Of a DNA stretch of 64,000 nucleotides, positions 7,610 to 42,597 are shown piece by piece. Where the stretch lies: the IMG/VR virus record IMGVR_UViG_3300009702_000023, positions 1 to 64,000 of that record; one strand, given 5' to 3'. The translations under genes were made by a program, and so were the position numbers. The notes under the pieces were generated by a model. It saw only the letters and a list, made by a program, of their open reading frames with translations. It was not told the DNA's origin and made no database searches. How positions within the stretch are numbered: the stretch's first letter is position 1; every line of letters starts with the position of its first letter. This DNA is from a virus.

Positions 7610-8836
7610 TTAGTTAGAAATTCCTGAAATCAATGTATTCTTTCCGGGTGCATAACAGAACAATGCTTGATCGGTGTAGGATCTAAGCTCATATCCTGCG
7701 CTATTTTCTAGCTCACGGAAAAACTCACTTCCTTGTCCAGGTCTTTTGAAGGTGATATCGGTAGAACCGATTCGGAGCCATTCATCAAGACACATAACAT
7801 AAGAATATCCTTCTTTTACATAAATGGAAGGAACAATTTCAACCTTACCATTTTGAGCAAAGAAAGTGATCTCTTGCGCACCATTTTCTGTAACAGAGGA
7901 ACGATAAGAACTATCGTACTGTCGTAGAGCAGATTGCTCGGTCAAAAGATCAGCCCAAGAGCGAGGATTAACGAGAACCATAACATCACTGTCAAGGCCT
8001 TTTTCAACTGCGCGAGCTACAGCCTCTTGCATTGCTGCAAAAGATAGAGCGCCAGCAGGAGAAATTACATATGAATTACCTTTGAAAAGATCATATGTTC
8101 CAGCATTAATTCCGAAAATTGAACCAGTGTTAGTCAAAATTTTGTGAACACCAGCGAAATCATTTCCGTATTGACCTTTGTGCCAGATAATATCTGTAGC
8201 AACTACTCCAGCAGGAATAGAATCAACAGTAATTGTTCTAGCAGTCATGTCAACGGAGCTAATACTAGCAAAACCACGAGAAGTGGCACCAGTAGCATCA
8301 CGAATTTCAATAGGCATGTTGTTAGCACCAGCCCAAATACCGGGCGCCCACTCAGCAGTGGTAATAGTAATAACCGCACCAGATGTGGATGCAACTTTAG
8401 CTAAACCTTCTTGGCCATACAACATAACCATTTCAAGTTTTTTAGCCATTGAACGAAGCATGTTTGATACAAGAAACTTCGTGGAATCTTCAAATGCCTT
8501 TTGACCACCACCAGCAGCACGAGCCGCAGCAGCATATCCAAGCACAGAGCGAAGAACCATTTGACTACCGCGAACTTGCGCGTCACGGATCAAACCAGAA
8601 ACGGGTGCCTGAAGATTAAATGCATCATCAGTAGGACCAGCAAAGGTCACGCCGTGTTCGTGGCCGAGAATGACTGGTTGGTGATACAAATTACCAAGTT
8701 GTCGATCACGACTAGAGAAACTTATTTTATTTACGAGCTTAACGCCTTCAGGAATAAGGTTTTCGATATTATCTGCATAAACTTCCTTAAAGTTGGCGTT
8801 TAGCGTGTCAGAAAAATTATTAGAACTTGAAGCCAT
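7610..8836 (-). CDS. Major capsid protein
   Basis: 408 aa; downstream of scaffold; strong GGAGGT RBS and terminator; higher-GC codon usage; N-terminal L...FKEVY pattern seen in podovirus-like coat proteins. Confidence 0.8.
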   Translation of the reverse strand: MASSSNNFSDTLNANFKEVYADNIENLIPEGVKLVNKISFSSRDRQLGNLYHQPVILGHEHGVTFAGPTDDAFNLQAPVSGLIRDAQVRGSQMVLRSVLGYAAAARAAGGGQKAFEDSTKFLVSNMLRSMAKKLEMVMLYGQEGLAKVASTSGAVITITTAEWAPGIWAGANNMPIEIRDATGATSRGFASISSVDMTARTITVDSIPAGVVATDIIWHKGQYGNDFAGVHKILTNTGSIFGINAGTYDLFKGNSYVISPAGALSFAAMQEAVARAVEKGLDSDVMVLVNPRSWADLLTEQSALRQYDSSYRSSVTENGAQEITFFAQNGKVEIVPSIYVKEGYSYVMCLDEWLRIGSTDITFKRPGQGSEFFRELENSAGYELRSYTDQALFCYAPGKNTLISGISN

Positions 8837-13769: not shown

Positions 13770-15836
13770 TTATCCTTCGGTTGGCACTTCAGCCGGATTA
13801 GTTGGTAGATTTTGAAATGGTGCTGGCGGTTTAGCCGGTTCTGGTAAATTAGCTGGAGCTACATTCGGTGTAGGGGGCATTGCTGTCGGAGCTTGCGGCG
13901 GTCCCGATGGCATTTGACTTTGGTTAGGTTGCATTTGTGGCACATTTCCCGGAGCAACTGGTGAGCCGCCTTGTGGCCCTAATGGTTTTTCTCCCATCAT
14001 TGCTAATATATCTGGATCAGTTGTGCGCAGCAAATCAATGTGTTGTTGAATATGATTAGCAACTCGTTGGACCAAATCGGGGTCTTTCTTTAAATCTGCA
14101 TCAGATAAAATATATTTATGTTCTTTAATATGCAATGAATGTTGTTCAGTAAATACTGCGGGAATATCTTCACCTTCAATTAATTTTTCATTTTCAGATT
14201 TAATTAAAAGCAATTCAGATTGTGGGTTTTCTGTTAAGAAATCTAATTCCCCGGTGTTAATTACATTGAAATATTGTTCGGGTTCTGTTATTACGCCCAT
14301 TTGAATCATATCTTTGGCCATTTCAACTCGGCCCGCTGTTGTCCTCGCGAGAGCATTCCCCATATCAACAATAACTCTATTAATTTTATTTAAATCTTCG
14401 CCAGTAAATTCTTTCATTAATGTTCTATGTTTTTTACCACTAATCATTGCAATTCTGGGGACAGATGCAAATTTTTGCAGCATTTTTATCAGCCCGGTTC
14501 CAACATCTTCAATTAATTCAACATAAGATTGCTGTAAACCTGACATATATTGAATTGACATACTTTGTACTAATGCCAAAGCTGTTCCAGTTTTTAAACT
14601 TGACTCCGGATTGCCACGAGAAACAGAACTAATACCAGAGATAGTTTCCATTACTCGTTCTAACATTCCTAAATATTCAAAAACTTCTCTAGGAGTTGCT
14701 GTTAAATTTAATGCTTCTGGTTTTCCCATTTGAGCATTATACTCAATTAAATTTAGACCACCGACTAAGGTAGACGGGTTAATATCAGTTCCGCGTGGCA
14801 TTAAAATATTTTGAACACCGAAGGCATTTTGGTTACTTAAAATTGTGCTATACAATGAATTAACTGCATCTTGAATTGGGAGTAAATCAAGCATAGGAGT
14901 ATAACCATAAGGTGTGCCTAAAATATTTGATGGGGCAATACGATAAATTGGAAGCTCATCATACGGCATTACTGTGTCCATTAAAATAATATCTTTAGCT
15001 AGAAATAAAAGATATCGTCCATCGGGCATAGATTCAGTTGATCTATGAAATAATTCATATACCGGAATATCGTCAGTTTCGACATAACCTAAACTATTAA
15101 ATCTAAAACGATAGTATTCTTCCTTGGTATCCATTTTGATAATTTCATCTTCAAGTTCAGGATATTTTGCTGCTAGATCAAATTTATTTTTAAATGAACG
15201 GGTAACAATCCAATCATGAGTATCAGTATCTTCTTTTGTACTATCAACAACAACATCAAATGGTGAAAGATTTGAGAAAACAACATCGCCTTCAAAAATT
15301 GGATATCCTTCTTCTACTACATTACCTTGTGCGTCATGTTCGGGCTCAATTGTATCATACAATGGTCCCGCCATGGCATTCCATTCCATTTTAATATAAC
15401 CAGCACCCAAAACGACAGCATATTCTACCGCAGTTTGAAGATATTTTTCCAGCTTTTTCTCTCGCATATAATAATCGAGTAATCCATTAGCGAGAATTGT
15501 TTGGGATTGTGATTTGTAATCAGTATTAACTGCTCTAGCCTCAAATGTTGGTCGCGTTGCTGTAACCATAACCAACATATGTTGTGCTATATTACGAAAA
15601 TGATTAATCGGCAAATTGGCCAGTTCGCCTTGCTCACCACCAAATGTAATTTTATGCCCATCATTAAATCCGGCATAATATATTCCGTGATATGCTGCCC
15701 ACATTTCCCGAAGTTTATCTAAATATCCATTAGAATCTAAATTATTAAACCAGTTTCCGGCTTTTTCTAATAATATACCGGCAGTTTCTTCTGGATCTCT
15801 ATTTGCGAAATATTTGTCACCATGATGATTTGCCAT
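13770..15836 (-). CDS. Portal protein (P22-like)
   Basis: 688 aa directly downstream of TerL; G.GYIKMEW, LSPFDVVVD, ISGISSVSRG; Pro/Gln-rich tail. Confidence 0.85.
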   Translation of the reverse strand: MANHHGDKYFANRDPEETAGILLEKAGNWFNNLDSNGYLDKLREMWAAYHGIYYAGFNDGHKITFGGEQGELANLPINHFRNIAQHMLVMVTATRPTFEARAVNTDYKSQSQTILANGLLDYYMREKKLEKYLQTAVEYAVVLGAGYIKMEWNAMAGPLYDTIEPEHDAQGNVVEEGYPIFEGDVVFSNLSPFDVVVDSTKEDTDTHDWIVTRSFKNKFDLAAKYPELEDEIIKMDTKEEYYRFRFNSLGYVETDDIPVYELFHRSTESMPDGRYLLFLAKDIILMDTVMPYDELPIYRIAPSNILGTPYGYTPMLDLLPIQDAVNSLYSTILSNQNAFGVQNILMPRGTDINPSTLVGGLNLIEYNAQMGKPEALNLTATPREVFEYLGMLERVMETISGISSVSRGNPESSLKTGTALALVQSMSIQYMSGLQQSYVELIEDVGTGLIKMLQKFASVPRIAMISGKKHRTLMKEFTGEDLNKINRVIVDMGNALARTTAGRVEMAKDMIQMGVITEPEQYFNVINTGELDFLTENPQSELLLIKSENEKLIEGEDIPAVFTEQHSLHIKEHKYILSDADLKKDPDLVQRVANHIQQHIDLLRTTDPDILAMMGEKPLGPQGGSPVAPGNVPQMQPNQSQMPSGPPQAPTAMPPTPNVAPANLPEPAKPPAPFQNLPTNPAEVPTEG

Positions 15837-15869: not shown

Positions 15870-18518
15870 TTAATGCTTTTTTAAACTTGATCGGGGTTTA
15901 AATATATTAATAAATGCCTCATATTCTTTATTTTTCTCGGCATTAGTTTTAATAAATAAATCTTTATTTTCGCCTAAACCATATCCAGGGGGGTATGGAT
16001 TTTTAGATTCTTGAACATTTCGTATAAAATATGTAATTGCATCGCAATTATGAACGGCAATATCATTAACGGTATAACTATTGTCTTCTTCAACTTCCAG
16101 ATTATATACTTTTCCCGTATATAAACTCTCACTTTTTGTTAATTTTTTAAAATTCGATGGGTAATTATACTTATTTTTCGAAATTATATCATGTATTAAC
16201 TTATCTTCAAATATATAAGCTAAATCTTCATTTTTATTAATGTTTGTTATTAGATCTATGGCTTGTTGCTTATCTAAGTGCCAAATATATTGATCTTTTG
16301 CCGAAGGAGAAGATTTCCATCTTCCTTCCCGCTTTTGAAATGTAATATTACCCACTAATCCTAATTTTCTAGATAATATATCAACCCCATGTATAATTTC
16401 TTTACTAATGCTATTACCGATTATTCCGGTTTTAGAAAAATAACCATCGCCAAATAAATAACCAAGTAACATATACATAGATTGTTCTTTATTCAAATCA
16501 TATATAAATGGGGGAAAATGTTTTTGGGTACTAGTGCCTAATTTTTTCAACTCTGATCTAAGTTCGGATTGTGTAACACATATAATTCTACCATTATCAC
16601 TGTCTTTTTTATAATATCGGGCCTTCGTGCTTCGAGGTTTACACTCTCCATTTTTATGTCGGTTAATAGATCGCCTAGATACGCCACGTTTACCTTTTCC
16701 ATATGTATTATGTACTGCCTTTTCTAATATACCTAAAACATTTTTTTCTCTTTTATGACCGGCAAAAGATATTTGGTGCCCATTCCCACCAACAGATCCT
16801 TCGGCAACATAATATCCGTATAAAAAACATAATTCTTTTGTAATATTAATATTTCCTTCTTCAATAAAAGGAATATAAGCTTTATGATTTTCAAAATTTA
16901 ATTCAGCAGCGGGACTCCAGTTAGTGCCAGTAATTATTTTTTGACCAGTAAAACCTTCTTTTCTATTTTTTTCAACATTGCCAACATATAACCGATGATT
17001 AGGTGTACATTGCATCAACTCTCTTCCCGGAACTTTTATGTCACAAATTTCCCCAGAATAATCTCTATTCATAGTATTTGTAACTTTTTTAAATCTACCT
17101 TGGTGAGTTAATACTTGATCTCCGATAACAATATCTTCTATTTTTTTATACCCAGCATTGGTTAAAACTTTTTGGCCAGGCAAAAAACAGGCATCGTAAT
17201 GTCCTGAAGGAATAAAAATTGTATTATTTTCTTCATCATATAAAGTTACAGCGGGAGATTTAACATATTTCTTTCGATTTTTATCCCATGTAGCATTTTT
17301 TAAATGATGTATTAAAACTTTGCATCTGGGGTGTATTATAATTTTTTCTGATGCAATCCTCATCCTGAGATTGTTTAATGCAGCGTCTTTATTATCTTTT
17401 GCTGTAGGAATAAATAATAAATTATGTTTATAATTTAAATCATTCAATAAAATTAAGTTATTATTATCAGATACTCTTAAATATGGCTCTTTATATTCTC
17501 CCGATGCCGGGTTAGAATATACTTTCTGTTCTTTTTTCTTAATTTCCTTAGCTAATACATCTGTACGTAATGCTTGACCTTTAATATAAAATTCATCCTC
17601 AATAACGGTAACGGCATTTTTAAAATCATAATATCCAAACAAAACCACTGTTAAATCATCAAATCCTATGTCCATTGACACATAGGCGTCATAAAATGGG
17701 GGTCTTGGCCAGGCTTTTATACATTTTTCTTGAATAGCTGTTGTAAATTCGGGAATTACGGCTTTTTCAGAGTCAATAATAATTTCACAAAGGTATTCTC
17801 GGCGGAAATCATCATCTTTTTCTTTTAAAGGGTAACGATTAATGATTTTTTGTCTTTTTTCGGGAGTCATCATGGGATTATCAAATAACGTGTACTTAAT
17901 TAACTCCCCCGTCAACTCGTTTGGTTGAACAAACTCCGTTATAAATTCATGATCGGGCTTAGGTGATGGTGTAGAAGCTAAAATGCCCCGACCGCCGGTA
18001 GTATCCGCCGTTGGAGCAAGGACAGAATTAACAATATCCTTCAATTCATCGCAAAAACCTGCCTCATCGACAATCCATAGATCGGATTTACCTCCGCGAA
18101 GTGATTGGTAGTGGCCATTATCTGTTCCTGCTATCTGAATTTGACTTCCATTAGGAAAAAGGTACATTTTGGCATTAGTTTTATATTCTGGGCGCAATTC
18201 CGGGGGGCAATCTTTAAAAATATCTTGCATAATCGGTTTAATAATCTTTTGCACCATGTCTTGCTTAGGACAAACATATTTAACAATAGAATCTGGTTTT
18301 TTGAGACACTGTTCAACAGATAATACACATAATAAATAACTTTTGCCCAATCTTCGGGCACAAGTAATAACCGTTATTTCTTTATTGAAATCATTAATAG
18401 AGTTATACATGCGTTTTTGAACTTCATGTAATTTCCAATGAATAACCCCTCGTCGCCAAAGAGTAAATAATGCCTCTTTAGGTGTTGGTTTTTTTATTTC
18501 CATTAGCAGATCCCGCAA
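15870..18518 (-). CDS. terL: Terminase large subunit with intein
   Basis: CARRLGKS Walker A, LRGG, WIVDEAG Walker B, ASTP, MDIG nuclease motif; true start may be a few codons downstream. Confidence 0.92.
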   Translation of the reverse strand: MRDLLMEIKKPTPKEALFTLWRRGVIHWKLHEVQKRMYNSINDFNKEITVITCARRLGKSYLLCVLSVEQCLKKPDSIVKYVCPKQDMVQKIIKPIMQDIFKDCPPELRPEYKTNAKMYLFPNGSQIQIAGTDNGHYQSLRGGKSDLWIVDEAGFCDELKDIVNSVLAPTADTTGGRGILASTPSPKPDHEFITEFVQPNELTGELIKYTLFDNPMMTPEKRQKIINRYPLKEKDDDFRREYLCEIIIDSEKAVIPEFTTAIQEKCIKAWPRPPFYDAYVSMDIGFDDLTVVLFGYYDFKNAVTVIEDEFYIKGQALRTDVLAKEIKKKEQKVYSNPASGEYKEPYLRVSDNNNLILLNDLNYKHNLLFIPTAKDNKDAALNNLRMRIASEKIIIHPRCKVLIHHLKNATWDKNRKKYVKSPAVTLYDEENNTIFIPSGHYDACFLPGQKVLTNAGYKKIEDIVIGDQVLTHQGRFKKVTNTMNRDYSGEICDIKVPGRELMQCTPNHRLYVGNVEKNRKEGFTGQKIITGTNWSPAAELNFENHKAYIPFIEEGNINITKELCFLYGYYVAEGSVGGNGHQISFAGHKREKNVLGILEKAVHNTYGKGKRGVSRRSINRHKNGECKPRSTKARYYKKDSDNGRIICVTQSELRSELKKLGTSTQKHFPPFIYDLNKEQSMYMLLGYLFGDGYFSKTGIIGNSISKEIIHGVDILSRKLGLVGNITFQKREGRWKSSPSAKDQYIWHLDKQQAIDLITNINKNEDLAYIFEDKLIHDIISKNKYNYPSNFKKLTKSESLYTGKVYNLEVEEDNSYTVNDIAVHNCDAITYFIRNVQESKNPYPPGYGLGENKDLFIKTNAEKNKEYEAFINIFKPRSSLKKH
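16047..17189 (-). mobile_element. Intein (381 aa) with LAGLIDADG endonuclease
   Basis: CFLPGQKV start, VYNLEV...IAVHN|C end; FLYGYYVAEGS and LLGYLFGDGY blocks. Confidence 0.93.
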
Positions 18519-19391: not shown

Positions 19392-19415
19392 AAGGTAATT
19401 TTGGGCAAAAAAAGC

Positions 19416-19444
19416 TTGACAAATAAAATAATATGTATTATATT
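19416..19444 (+). promoter_or_regulatory. Sigma-70-type promoter
   Basis: TTGACA-N17-TATATT, A-rich upstream element. Confidence 0.65.
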
Positions 19445-19467
19445 AATTACAACACATAAGGAGCAAA

Positions 19468-25796: not shown

Positions 25797-26423
25797 CGGA
25801 GCCAACCACGTTTTTCGATTTAGCGATCACGCTTTATGGCACTTAATACATGATTAATGTGTTTTTTTAGGATATTTTTTTCATTTTTCTTTAAACATAT
25901 CAATAATTAATAAAAAATTGTGCCCACATAGACCCAACCATAATAATCAAAAATATGATCAATGATAAAAAGCCTAAATCTACGATTTTATTTAAGAATA
26001 TGTGTAAAAATCCGTAAATTATTGGCAAAATAAAAATGAATATTAAAACTATAAATACTACCATGTATAAAGTATATAATACTTCGATTAATTTGTCAAG
26101 ATTTATTATTTTGTGTGCTCCCGAAAGCATAATTGACCCACATATTGTGTCAATTACCCCCGATTCGCCCATATTTGGCCTGTACCAGGTTTTTAGTAGG
26201 TAAGACGGGTACTTATGTGCCTTTACTATTTTTATTCAATCTAGGGCATTCTAAGCCCTCGAACATGTATTAACTTAAAAATCTATTTTAAATTTTTTTC
26301 AGGATTTTATTTTATCTTAATGTTTTCAACATTATAGCCCCGATGTATTAAGTTTATTTTCCCCTATACGCGCTCTGAGATACTCAACGTAAACATCGAG
26401 TTCAAAGTAACCCTACCCCCCCC

Positions 26424-26569
26424 TGGCACAACAATTGCAATTACAAAATCCATACCAAAAAACAATCCTAAAATGAGACATAAAAAAGTTGGCATGAAAA
26501 TTGCTAATGCAAAGTCTGGGCCGGGAACTGGTGAGAATGTTGGTTGAGAATTTTGGCACGAAAATTGAA
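26424..26569. promoter_or_regulatory. Array of sigma-54-type (-24/-12) sites
   Basis: TGGCAC-N5-TTGCA (26424), TGGCAT-N5-TTGCT (26490), TGGCAC-N5-TTGAA (26554); reverse-strand sites at 26442-26457 and 26508-26523. Confidence 0.7.
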
Positions 26570-26611
26570 TGCAATCTACTTCAAAACTATACTGTCCACA
26601 AAAAATAATAT

Positions 26612-26638
26612 TAAAGTTTATATACATTGCGCCGATAT
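26612..26638 (+). promoter_or_regulatory. Sigma-28 (FliA)-type promoter before the first early gene
   Basis: TAAAGTTT-N11-GCCGATAT versus consensus TAAAGTTT-N11-GCCGATAA. Confidence 0.7.
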
Positions 26639-26671
26639 ATATGATATATTAAGTAAATCGGGAGAGATAAT

Positions 26672-27091
26672 ATGATCAAATATATAAATCAAATAATATT
26701 GAATGAGAGTCAAAAAATAAAATATATTGTCAAAGATGATGCACCAAATACATTTGAGAGCCTTGTAAACACTCCTAGCTTAGTTGTATGGTCGGGAGAG
26801 AGCCACAACACAATATTTCAAGATAAAACCGTCAATTGGGCATTTCGTGCGTTACATGATACGGTACATCTTGCAACTAGGATAGGGTTTGCTCCTGAAG
26901 AAGAAGTTAGACTGGCTAAAATTCAGGCAAATAAATACTCAAAAAATTGCCAACAACTAATTGCAGACTTAATATATATTGAAGTTGCGGAACAAGCCAA
27001 ATATTATAAACAATTTAATCAATTTCTAGGTGACAAACAAATACAATTCACTATGAAACATTTAAATAAATTAGGCTATGTATTTAATTAA
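26672..27091 (+). CDS. Early hypothetical protein
   Basis: NWAFRALHDTVH motif; GGGAG RBS. Confidence 0.55.
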   Translation: MIKYINQIILNESQKIKYIVKDDAPNTFESLVNTPSLVVWSGESHNTIFQDKTVNWAFRALHDTVHLATRIGFAPEEEVRLAKIQANKYSKNCQQLIADLIYIEVAEQAKYYKQFNQFLGDKQIQFTMKHLNKLGYVFN

Positions 27092-27106: not shown

Positions 27107-27457
27107 ATGAAAATAATACTTGCGCTTAATACAGATCATCCAAGCGAAGAGGCTATAATTAAGTCACTAGACTTACCATATCAAAAACTAATTGGTTGTT
27201 ACAAGGGTCAATGTGAAGATAGCTATATGGTTGAATACAAAAATCTATGTGATTTATATAAAATTGTGGCTTTGGCTCAAAAACATAACCAAGAATCAAT
27301 CCTAAGTATTGGTGATGATCTTAGTTGTATCCTGAAATACATCAAATTGACTCAGGATGATGTTTCATTGGGAACATGGACTCAAGTACCCAAAGCTGAA
27401 GCATTCAACTGTGACGCTTGGAGCTTGATTGACGGTCAATATTATATTTGTAAATAA
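27107..27457 (+). CDS. SAM lyase/hydrolase (T3 SAMase-like anti-restriction protein)
   Basis: GCYKG..E.S, L...HNQESIL and G.W.QVPK...W...DG.YY match my recollection of the T3 SAMase pattern; early position. Confidence 0.7.
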   Translation: MKIILALNTDHPSEEAIIKSLDLPYQKLIGCYKGQCEDSYMVEYKNLCDLYKIVALAQKHNQESILSIGDDLSCILKYIKLTQDDVSLGTWTQVPKAEAFNCDAWSLIDGQYYICK

Positions 27458-39054: not shown

Positions 39055-40263
39055 TTTTGGGAGGTTTTATGTGGTTTTTATTATATTTGGGTTTATTTTT
39101 ATTAACTGAACTTTTAATTGGGAGTTTATAATGTCAATATTGTTAATATTATTTATTAATACACAATGTTTTTCTCAGGAATATATAGATATTAAAGACA
39201 CATCAAATGGTTATACGCAAATTATATACCATACAGATAATGGTAAAAGTTATAATTTGGAATTAAAAATCAAAGATTTAAAAAATGAGAAAAAAATAAA
39301 GGAATGGTTTGATGAAGTTGCCCCCGATGATAGTATGTTTACAGATGATCTATTGAAATAATAAACTTTTTTCTTGACAAAGCTTTTTTATTAATATATA
39401 ATATTAATTATGACAAGGACGATGTATTATGAAAAAAAACACAAGTGATTTTCCATTATTGGATGACGATGAAAATTTTCTAGATTTTTCAAACATAGAC
39501 CCAGAACAAATGGAGCGAGTGTTTCAAGTCATTGATTTTTTGGCGAATAAAAAACAATTAATGATGAAATTTAGTCCAGAGGTTATTCATTTTCTAGACA
39601 AAAATGATAATATAACAGAAATCGCGTCAGATTATGAATTTAATGATCTTATAATTGGTCTTATAAAAAATGAGCTTGTTGATCATTTTAATTTTAATCC
39701 AGAAGAAATTATGATATTAACGGAATTTGATTTTTTAGATCTTGTTACTGATGGATATTTTTTTGATAAAAACAATTATTTACGAGGAGATAATAATGAC
39801 AAATACAAGAATTCGGTACACTAAAGCTGGGGTTAATCTAGTTTCCAGGCAAGCATTTCAAGTTAATGAAACTACTTCAGTTAAAGTTGTTCTTAACTCG
39901 GAAACAATGAAATACGACATTGTAGATGCAACAGATGAATCAAATGTACTAGCGAGCGGGGGTAACACAAAAAACCTGTCTGTGCTTAAGATTCAAGCAA
40001 AACGTAATCTTAAAGCTATGGGATTAGAGTTTAATACGGAATCGAGAAATCGTGGATAAAAAGCTCTTACATCCTAATATTCTTAAAAAAACTAGAGAAT
40101 TGGCCCAGCATGATTATGTAGATCGGGCCTTTGATTTGGATCATCCGGAGCATTTTTTAGCTAAATGTTATGCTTGCGGTTATATTGGGGCATTAGTAAA
40201 TGCTGGGTATACTATTACAATTGAAAAAGATAACGAAAAATATATTTATCCAAAGGAAAAATA

Positions 40264-42223: not shown

Positions 42224-42597
42224 AAAATACTTGGCCTGTATCGAGAAAAAGCTTGACAAACAAAATTAAATGTGTTACTTTAAATATAACGGAGAAAATG
42301 AATGGCAAATCAATATGAGAAACGTAAAGCGCGAGAAGCTGAATTATTAAATGAAGTCTCAAAAAAACGAGAAGCCAAACGAAAAAAAATTAATACCGAT
42401 TTAACAAATATAGCCTTTGATATTATTAAAGATGAAAAAGGTAAATATTTGTTGGTCGTTATTAAATATAATTCCGCAACAAAACTTGCTGAAGTTCAGG
42501 AAATTAAACCGCTCGGAAATCGAGCTTTGGGGTTGATGTTTGAACAAAAGAAAACTGCATTAAAAACATTAAGTAATATAAAATAAGGAGGCAATAC

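Follow-up and report, generated by a model that had tools for sequence, protein, structure and literature searches.

We describe a putative transcription control region of a phage in which ordered sigma-54-type boxes and a sigma-28 (FliA)-type promoter precede a long block of early-type genes. The interpretation we favor, to which we assign a probability of about 0.45, is that bases 26410-26671 constitute the rightward half of a divergent early control region that would be wired to alternative sigma factors of the host. In textbook accounts, early transcription of phages proceeds from sigma-70 promoters or by means of a phage polymerase; of the bacterial forms of the enzyme, sigma-54 polymerase is the only one to bind DNA silently until an ATPase triggers it.

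The window, that is, the whole 64,000-nucleotide stretch of DNA analyzed here, comprises bases 1-64000 of one 73,835-bp IMG/VR viral contig, which is classed as linear and ~88% complete and has a GC content of ~32%. The structural genes are oriented leftward (Table 1). A long rightward gene block spans 26672 to ~58470, starting with a gene for a phrog_7806 protein followed by a SAM-lyase-like gene, an amidoligase and a glutamine amidotransferase, and later including a primase-helicase and a family B DNA polymerase. The box array is located ahead of this block in a 499-bp non-coding gap (26173-26671). The sequencing runs listed for this DNA comprise one DNA run, a subsurface metagenome that is probably the source, and no RNA run; a Logan contig of that run crosses the array unbroken. 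The phage record collection contains no nucleotide match to the window, and single-protein scans of IMG/VR returned nothing close.

Two of the encoded proteins have features of their own. Residues ~443-836 of the terminase large subunit match non-terminase families (phrog_36001, anaerobic ribonucleotide reductase family), which suggests an intein or other inserted domain. The phrog_7806 family, to which the product of the first rightward gene belongs, has invariant E and Q residues besides the HDxxH motif. The AlphaFold model of this product has a pLDDT of 93 and its fold has no clear match in the PDB, the best hint being the YbeY metallo-endoribonuclease (Z 3.7); the protein may be a small metal-dependent enzyme.

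Table 1. Positions of genes, promoters and sigma-54-type boxes in the window.
Feature	Position	Strand	Remarks
Major capsid protein	7610-8836	-	
Portal protein	13770-15836	-	
Terminase large subunit	15870-18518	-	882 aa
Canonical sigma-70 promoters	19405-19450, 39365-39405, 42245-42290	+	Ahead of plus-strand units
Hydrophobic 54-aa ORF	25900-26064	-	ATG 26064-26062
Sigma-70-type promoter TTGACA-N17-TATACT	26071-26099	-	11/12
Second leftward sigma-70-type promoter TTGACA-N16-TATGCT	26126-26153	-	
AT-rich tract	26270-26340		Inside the 499-bp gap between divergent units
C-tract ACCCTACCCCCCCC	26410-26423	+	Directly precedes box 1
Box 1, TGGCAC-aacaa-TTGCA	26424-26439	+	Sigma-54-type, 15/15
Inverted partner of box 1, TGGTAT-N5-TTGTA	26442-26457	-	Degenerate, 12/15
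Box 2, TGGCAT-gaaaa-TTGCT	26490-26505	+	Sigma-54-type, 15/15
Inverted partner of box 2, CGGCCC-N5-TTGCA	26508-26523	-	Degenerate, 13/15
Box 3, TGGCAC-gaaaa-TTGAA	26554-26569	+	Sigma-54-type, 13/15
Sigma-28 (FliA)-type promoter TAAAGTTT-N11-GCCGATAT	26612-26638	+	15/16 to consensus
Overlapping sigma-70-type match TTTATA-N17-TATGAT	26617-26645	+	Weak, 9/12
Ribosome-binding site GGGAGAG	26660-26666	+	
First rightward gene	26672-27091	+	139 aa, phrog_7806 family, invariant HDxxH
SAM-lyase-like gene	27107-27457	+	

An initial annotation of this DNA had reported three forward TGGCA[CT]-N5-TTG sites, the first two of which are each followed by a site on the reverse strand. All of these sites are present: the forward boxes start 66 and 64 bp apart, and the two inverted partners begin exactly 2 bp after the end of boxes 1 and 2. 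To score the boxes, every 16-mer was assigned a weighted match to TGGCAY-N5-TTGCW, with a maximum of 15, and the number of full-score sites to be expected was obtained from Markov resampling. The pattern TGGCAY-N5-TTG has 5 matches in the window compared to 1.24 expected, three of them in the array, and the full score of 15 is reached at only two sites in the 73.8-kb contig (0.2 expected), namely boxes 1 and 2. These two boxes also match in full the sigma-54 motif with GG and GC exactly 10 nt apart (for the core consensus, see PMC12316311). Box 3 has GA instead of the GC of the -12 element, and its sole partner is poor and abuts it at 26570-26585. The forward boxes score much better than their inverted partners, are co-oriented with the first gene, and are found 92-222 nt before its ATG with another promoter in between. 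Box-like sites elsewhere in the contig (19187-19202, 73323-73338) are at the chance level, and scanning the whole contig detected no other significant sigma-54 site beyond the array.

The array was also compared with other kinds of element. RNA and DNA folds of the region are no better than those of shuffled sequences (z-scores from -0.64 to +0.87), the N5 spacers have no complementarity, and Rfam has no match for the array region, which eliminates a hairpin, a cruciform, or a riboregulator or other structured RNA. A CRISPR-like array is rejected because the units are not identical; the 34-bp units, repeated at a 66-bp period, differ at most positions outside the boxes. With respect to an iteron-type origin, the units share only the box positions and there are no identical iterons, though an AT-rich tract is present.

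The element closest to the first gene belongs to a different promoter type. The consensus of late-class flagellar promoters served by sigma-28 (FliA/SigD) is TAAAGTTT-N11-GCCGATAA. The FliA-type promoter that had been annotated ~30 bp before the first gene is indeed there, its end being separated by 33 nt from the ATG at 26672. All other sites in the window have at least three mismatches to the consensus, and the contig contains no other significant sigma-28 site.

Two leftward sigma-70-type promoters are found on the far side of the gap, and the array is therefore situated between divergent promoters. The ATG of the hydrophobic 54-aa ORF begins 7 nt past the -10 hexamer of one of them (TTGACA-N17-TATACT). 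Because this distance is so short, the mRNA of the ORF is probably leaderless, and it probably encodes a small membrane protein. Starts directly after a promoter are seen in relatives of the phage too, after sigma-28-type (locus L014) and sigma-54-type (L005) promoters. Elsewhere in the contig, plus-strand units are headed by canonical sigma-70 promoters, from which it follows that the host uses the standard -35/-10 promoter; two of these three promoters have the upstream context AAAAAGCTTGACAAA in common. Because other plus-strand units have such promoters, 26672 is a candidate, one of several, for the start of the earliest genes.

Relatives of the phage were collected by means of the protein family of the first gene. 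An alignment of homologues, which are 43-62% identical, was used to retrieve 39 loci from IMG/VR and JGI metagenomes and 6 from bacterial assemblies. In the relatives and the contig taken together (296 kb) there are 51 sigma-54-type boxes compared to 3.7 expected from shuffles, and 13 sigma-28-type sites compared to 1.7 expected, so that both motif types recur in related genomes rather than being absent from them. In L006, L014, L019 and L027 the homologous gene has a sigma-28-type promoter immediately upstream, and in L020, L024 and L026 such promoters precede neighboring genes; they consist of (C)TAAAGTTT or TCAAGT and, after N11-12, GCCGATA. Their -35 and -10 elements are kept while the spacers are unrelated, which is the signature of selection for the promoter elements as such. 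The promoter standing nearest to the first gene differs among these phages, being of sigma-28 type in the window and four relatives, of sigma-54 type in L005 and of sigma-70 type in L044.

The sigma-54-type boxes of the relatives occur in two settings, arrays and single sites. In L044, L050 and L013, boxes in alternating orientation are located behind the same C-tract as in the window (CCCTACCCCCCC or a similar sequence); the combination of C-tract and box array is conserved in these loci while the spacers diverge. In L044 the stretch of the inverted partner of box 1 is kept, its N5 included. There are nine boxes with a period of ~22 bp in L013 and at least 8 in L050, and in both loci pentamers recur every ~11 bp in a pattern of two leftward and two rightward. 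The same kind of box units is found in L007 and in L018, whose contig starts at the last two C's of the tract; the contig of L013 likewise starts at or near the C-tract. In the arrays of L018 (1-130 and 720-760) and L050 (reverse strand), a G run (TTGCAAGGGGG) often comes after the -12 element or, on the other strand, a C run comes before it; what follows the gene-proximal boxes is AT-rich sequence instead.

Single boxes are characteristic of L029 and L005, which are syntenic with the window, having in common with it the terminase or the amidoligase and amidotransferase neighborhood. Here single boxes stand ahead of successive plus-strand genes, all co-oriented with the genes and at promoter distance. 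Each is followed by an AT-rich stretch, and the ribosome-binding site begins ~12 nt past the GC, about where a sigma-54 transcript would start. The divergent gap of L029 has leftward-pointing boxes on its left and rightward-pointing boxes on its right, and this layout of predicted sites is that of an ordinary divergent promoter region. The boxes in L029:5560-10800 and L005:6900-11570 are parts of longer conserved promoters, with an element resembling CTCAAATATAAC and TTATTGATnTCATTA, respectively, ~10-20 nt upstream and WTATAnTAT after the box. Fourteen nucleotides identical to the T7 class III promoter core (ACGACTCACTATAG) are present in L005:5800-5840 (IMGVR_UViG_3300029985_000017, a 163-kb phage contig), just 3' of a sigma-54-type box and 5' of the phrog_7806 homologue, and the same is seen in L016 and L017. 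Because related phages keep both types of sites while the spacers diverge, the initial assignment of these motifs to the sigma-54 and sigma-28 classes gains in weight, and the interpretation of both as real control elements, functional and under selection, is supported by this comparison of sequences.

The face-to-face arrangement extends well beyond these relatives. IMG/VR was scanned with a perfect-pair pattern, TGGCAY-N5-TTGC-N3-8-GCAA-N5-RTGCCA, which was found in at least 120 stretches, compared to ~3 expected by chance according to a rough estimate. In 80 loci among the matches listed, the most common inner spacing is that of the window itself, TTGCW-N2-WGCAA (39 of 103 pairs), and the N5 spacers are neither conserved nor complementary. 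The contigs bearing these 80 loci range from 31 to 68% GC, and the loci contain 329 strict boxes compared to 0.8 expected (the selected pairs included) as well as many further boxes with degenerate partners. Among the matches listed, the pairs lie at a median of 235-273 nt from the flanking ORFs, and 42 loci have no ORF of 70 aa or longer spanning the element, the pairs being flanked by divergent ORFs in 17 cases, co-directional ORFs in 16 and convergent ORFs in 3. Most ORFs that seem to span a pair are short ones, probably spurious. No perfect pair was found in 401 bacterial genomes, a sample too small to prove phage specificity.

In 23 loci of another lineage, the pairs are located 230-680 bp before a conserved unknown gene, which is followed by an endolysin-like gene and the terminase, and they often come in threes or fours with a 47-bp period; in L062, L066, L075, L082, L089 and L094 (for example, L062:3466-3639), three or four perfect pairs with this period precede a 135-aa gene by ~230 bp. 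Since pairs are found ahead of lysis and terminase modules, the design is not confined to the first-entering end of the DNA. This bears on the initial proposal that sigma-54 sites in convergent pairs may trap polymerase or serve as ratchets during genome entry, or protect DNA ends, for which one can cite that the array heads a block with a SAM-lyase-like gene, a class with a known early anti-restriction function, and that the contigs of two relatives start at the C-tract. The array is nevertheless internal to its contig, the Logan contig passes through it without a break, it is located between divergent promoters, and in other phages pairs occupy many non-terminal positions and precede late modules. 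Moreover, a sigma-54 closed complex does not translocate. The proposal is weakened by these observations and we regard it as highly improbable.

The nature of the factor that reads the boxes can be addressed through positions that the search patterns left free. In 351 phage boxes these positions are Y at -27 in 76%, R at -20 in 94% (G in 60%), R at -19 in 74% and W at -11 in 85%. The secondary preferences of sigma-54 promoters, reportedly described by Barrios et al. in 1999, are Y at -27, G or R at -20 and -19, and W at -11, and the free positions of the putative phage boxes follow this extension of the consensus. The same positions count against a different explanation, by which some other sequence-specific phage or host protein recognizes TKGCA half-sites one helical turn apart, as at a replication origin beside the AT-rich tract or where DNA is packaged or partitioned, and the likeness to sigma-54 is coincidental. 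The pentamers phased at ~11 bp in L013 and L050 do resemble dimer sites, the AT-rich tract is located ~100 bp to the left of the array, two contigs begin at or near the C-tract as noted above, and the place of the pairs in the other lineage, upstream of lysis and terminase genes, is a frequent place of cos and pac signals. However, the two pentamer types show a strict alternation of G and T and single gene-proximal boxes occur in the direct arrangement only, which calls for a reader that is both bipartite and asymmetric, as sigma-54 is; contigs with the motif span 31-68% GC, so the binder must be near-universal, unlike a phage protein; and the units are not identical repeats. A binder other than sigma-54 is accordingly quite unlikely in our estimation.

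Host sigma-54, as a near-universal asymmetric bipartite reader, fits the strict alternation of TGGCA- and TTGCA-type pentamers, the direct-only single sites and the varied base composition, and it is probably the factor that reads the boxes. With somewhat more assurance, host FliA would be the simplest reader of the sigma-28-type site and is likely to be the actual one. Searches of the contig with PF04552, PF04542 and PF04545 gave no match and no gene for sigma-54 or a sigma-70-family factor was found, although phage sigma factors can be too divergent for detection. PF00158, the sigma-54 activator domain, has no match in the contig or in three related, nearly complete phage records, and Pfam detects no AAA+ domain in ten early proteins.

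The sole hint about the host comes from the capsid protein, whose only match is a 28%-identical protein of a Silvanigrella phage. Prophage and MAG matches are distant and taxonomically scattered, and Atlas taxa for the cytochrome gene are mixed; neither gave a host assignment. There is no pointer to Bdellovibrio itself, and the initial argument from FliA-driven transcription in the attack phase of Bdellovibrio has no basis here.

Under the favored interpretation, the gene-proximal promoter of the divergent control region would be fired by the FliA holoenzyme of the host, with a small contribution of sigma-70 holoenzyme, and host sigma-54 holoenzyme would dock on the upstream boxes as silent closed complexes. 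The boxes would then serve as tandem conditional extra promoters, firing only when an enhancer-binding ATPase reaches them, and each quasi-palindromic unit would hold one polymerase at a time in either orientation owing to its inverted half-sites. Early expression would follow the state of the host sigma-54 and sigma-28 regulons, which in many bacteria make up the flagellar hierarchy. The simplest activator would be one working from solution, since none was found to be encoded by the phage. Activators devoid of a DNA-binding domain that can work on every sigma-54 promoter have been described (PMC3844500) and would explain the use of such promoters by a phage with neither activator nor enhancer.

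Several observations speak against this interpretation: no activator was found, the distances to the genes exceed what simple promoters would lead one to expect, two sites facing each other cannot be occupied or fire together, the G/C runs after array boxes in L018 and L050 suit silent docks better than firing promoters, and the contig has ordinary sigma-70 promoters and no further significant sigma-54 or sigma-28 site. The first four favor the main rival explanation, in which sigma-54, free or as holoenzyme, would occupy boxes that are not there for firing. The boxes would act as an insulator or roadblock separating the divergent units, as a local store of polymerase, or, after replication, as a sponge drawing sigma-54 away from host responses. 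In the absence of an activator, closed complexes of sigma-54 persist without transcribing, and repression or assistance of neighboring promoters has been suggested as a role of secondary sites (PMC3844500); the face-to-face geometry that dominates in phages would also make firing in two directions awkward. On the other hand, the syntenic relatives use the box singly, at promoter distance and co-oriented with the genes. A roadblock or sponge would be free of orientation, yet the forward boxes of the window are clearly the better ones, and five sites per genome would amount to a weak sponge before replication. We consider this rival rather unlikely.

A further possibility, which we put forward tentatively and with some doubt, is that in many phages, this one included, the face-to-face pair is a symmetric dock that would keep a single host polymerase in a silent state in front of an operon until a host activator working from solution or a non-AAA+ phage factor releases it. 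The lineage of this phage would have added FliA promoters or swapped them in, thereby tying early expression to the flagellar regulon of the host.

Comparison with known systems helps to separate what is familiar in this region from what is not. Sigma-54 (RpoN) promoters with -24/-12 elements, such as glnAp2 and pspA, have the same bipartite motif, fixed spacing and flanking biases, and the single boxes of the relatives likewise stand at promoter distance before genes; unlike these promoters, the phage boxes are arrayed, form face-to-face quasi-palindromes in two units, lie upstream of a promoter of another type, and are accompanied by neither an activator gene nor a recognizable enhancer. The likeness to FliA/SigD flagellar promoters consists of the 15/16 match at exact spacing, both elements being kept in relatives whose spacers differ, but the phage promoter would drive a gene that heads an early-type block rather than one for flagella or chemotaxis. 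Phage T7 has tandem sigma-70 early promoters, A1, A2 and A3, at its left end, which fire without assistance and contribute to drawing the DNA into the cell. The three forward boxes are similarly co-oriented sites for host polymerase, tens of bp apart, before genes that include one of anti-restriction type, whereas they would be silent without an ATPase and carry inverted partners. The PeSLs of T4-type phages, which consist of a sigma-70 early promoter and a hairpin at cassette boundaries, are comparable as conserved short regulatory modules that in many phages recur in front of small groups of genes; the box module differs in having no hairpin potential and a sigma-54-type motif. Finally, the secondary and intragenic sigma-54 sites of Salmonella, with proposed roles in repression, antisense transcription and promoter search (PMC3844500), are likewise good boxes that are not obviously promoters, but they are scattered singly in the chromosome, in contrast to the ordered arrays and pairs in non-coding regions of phages.

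Full-text literature searches yielded no paper describing arrays or pairs of sigma-54 boxes in phages, or FliA-type promoters for lytic early genes. As judged from their sequences, the motifs belong to known promoter classes; what is new is their arrangement in arrays and face-to-face pairs and their place in phage control regions, and also the putative FliA-type promoters heading lytic early-type genes. Because the elements are short and the specificity of sigma-54 is conserved across bacteria, they lend themselves to a direct test with the reagents commonly used for E. coli or Salmonella. Should sigma-54 holoenzyme bind the boxes, they would represent a widespread, undescribed way in which phages gate or insulate their operons, and the promoter type could then hint at the host, and at the physiology of the host, of uncultured phages.
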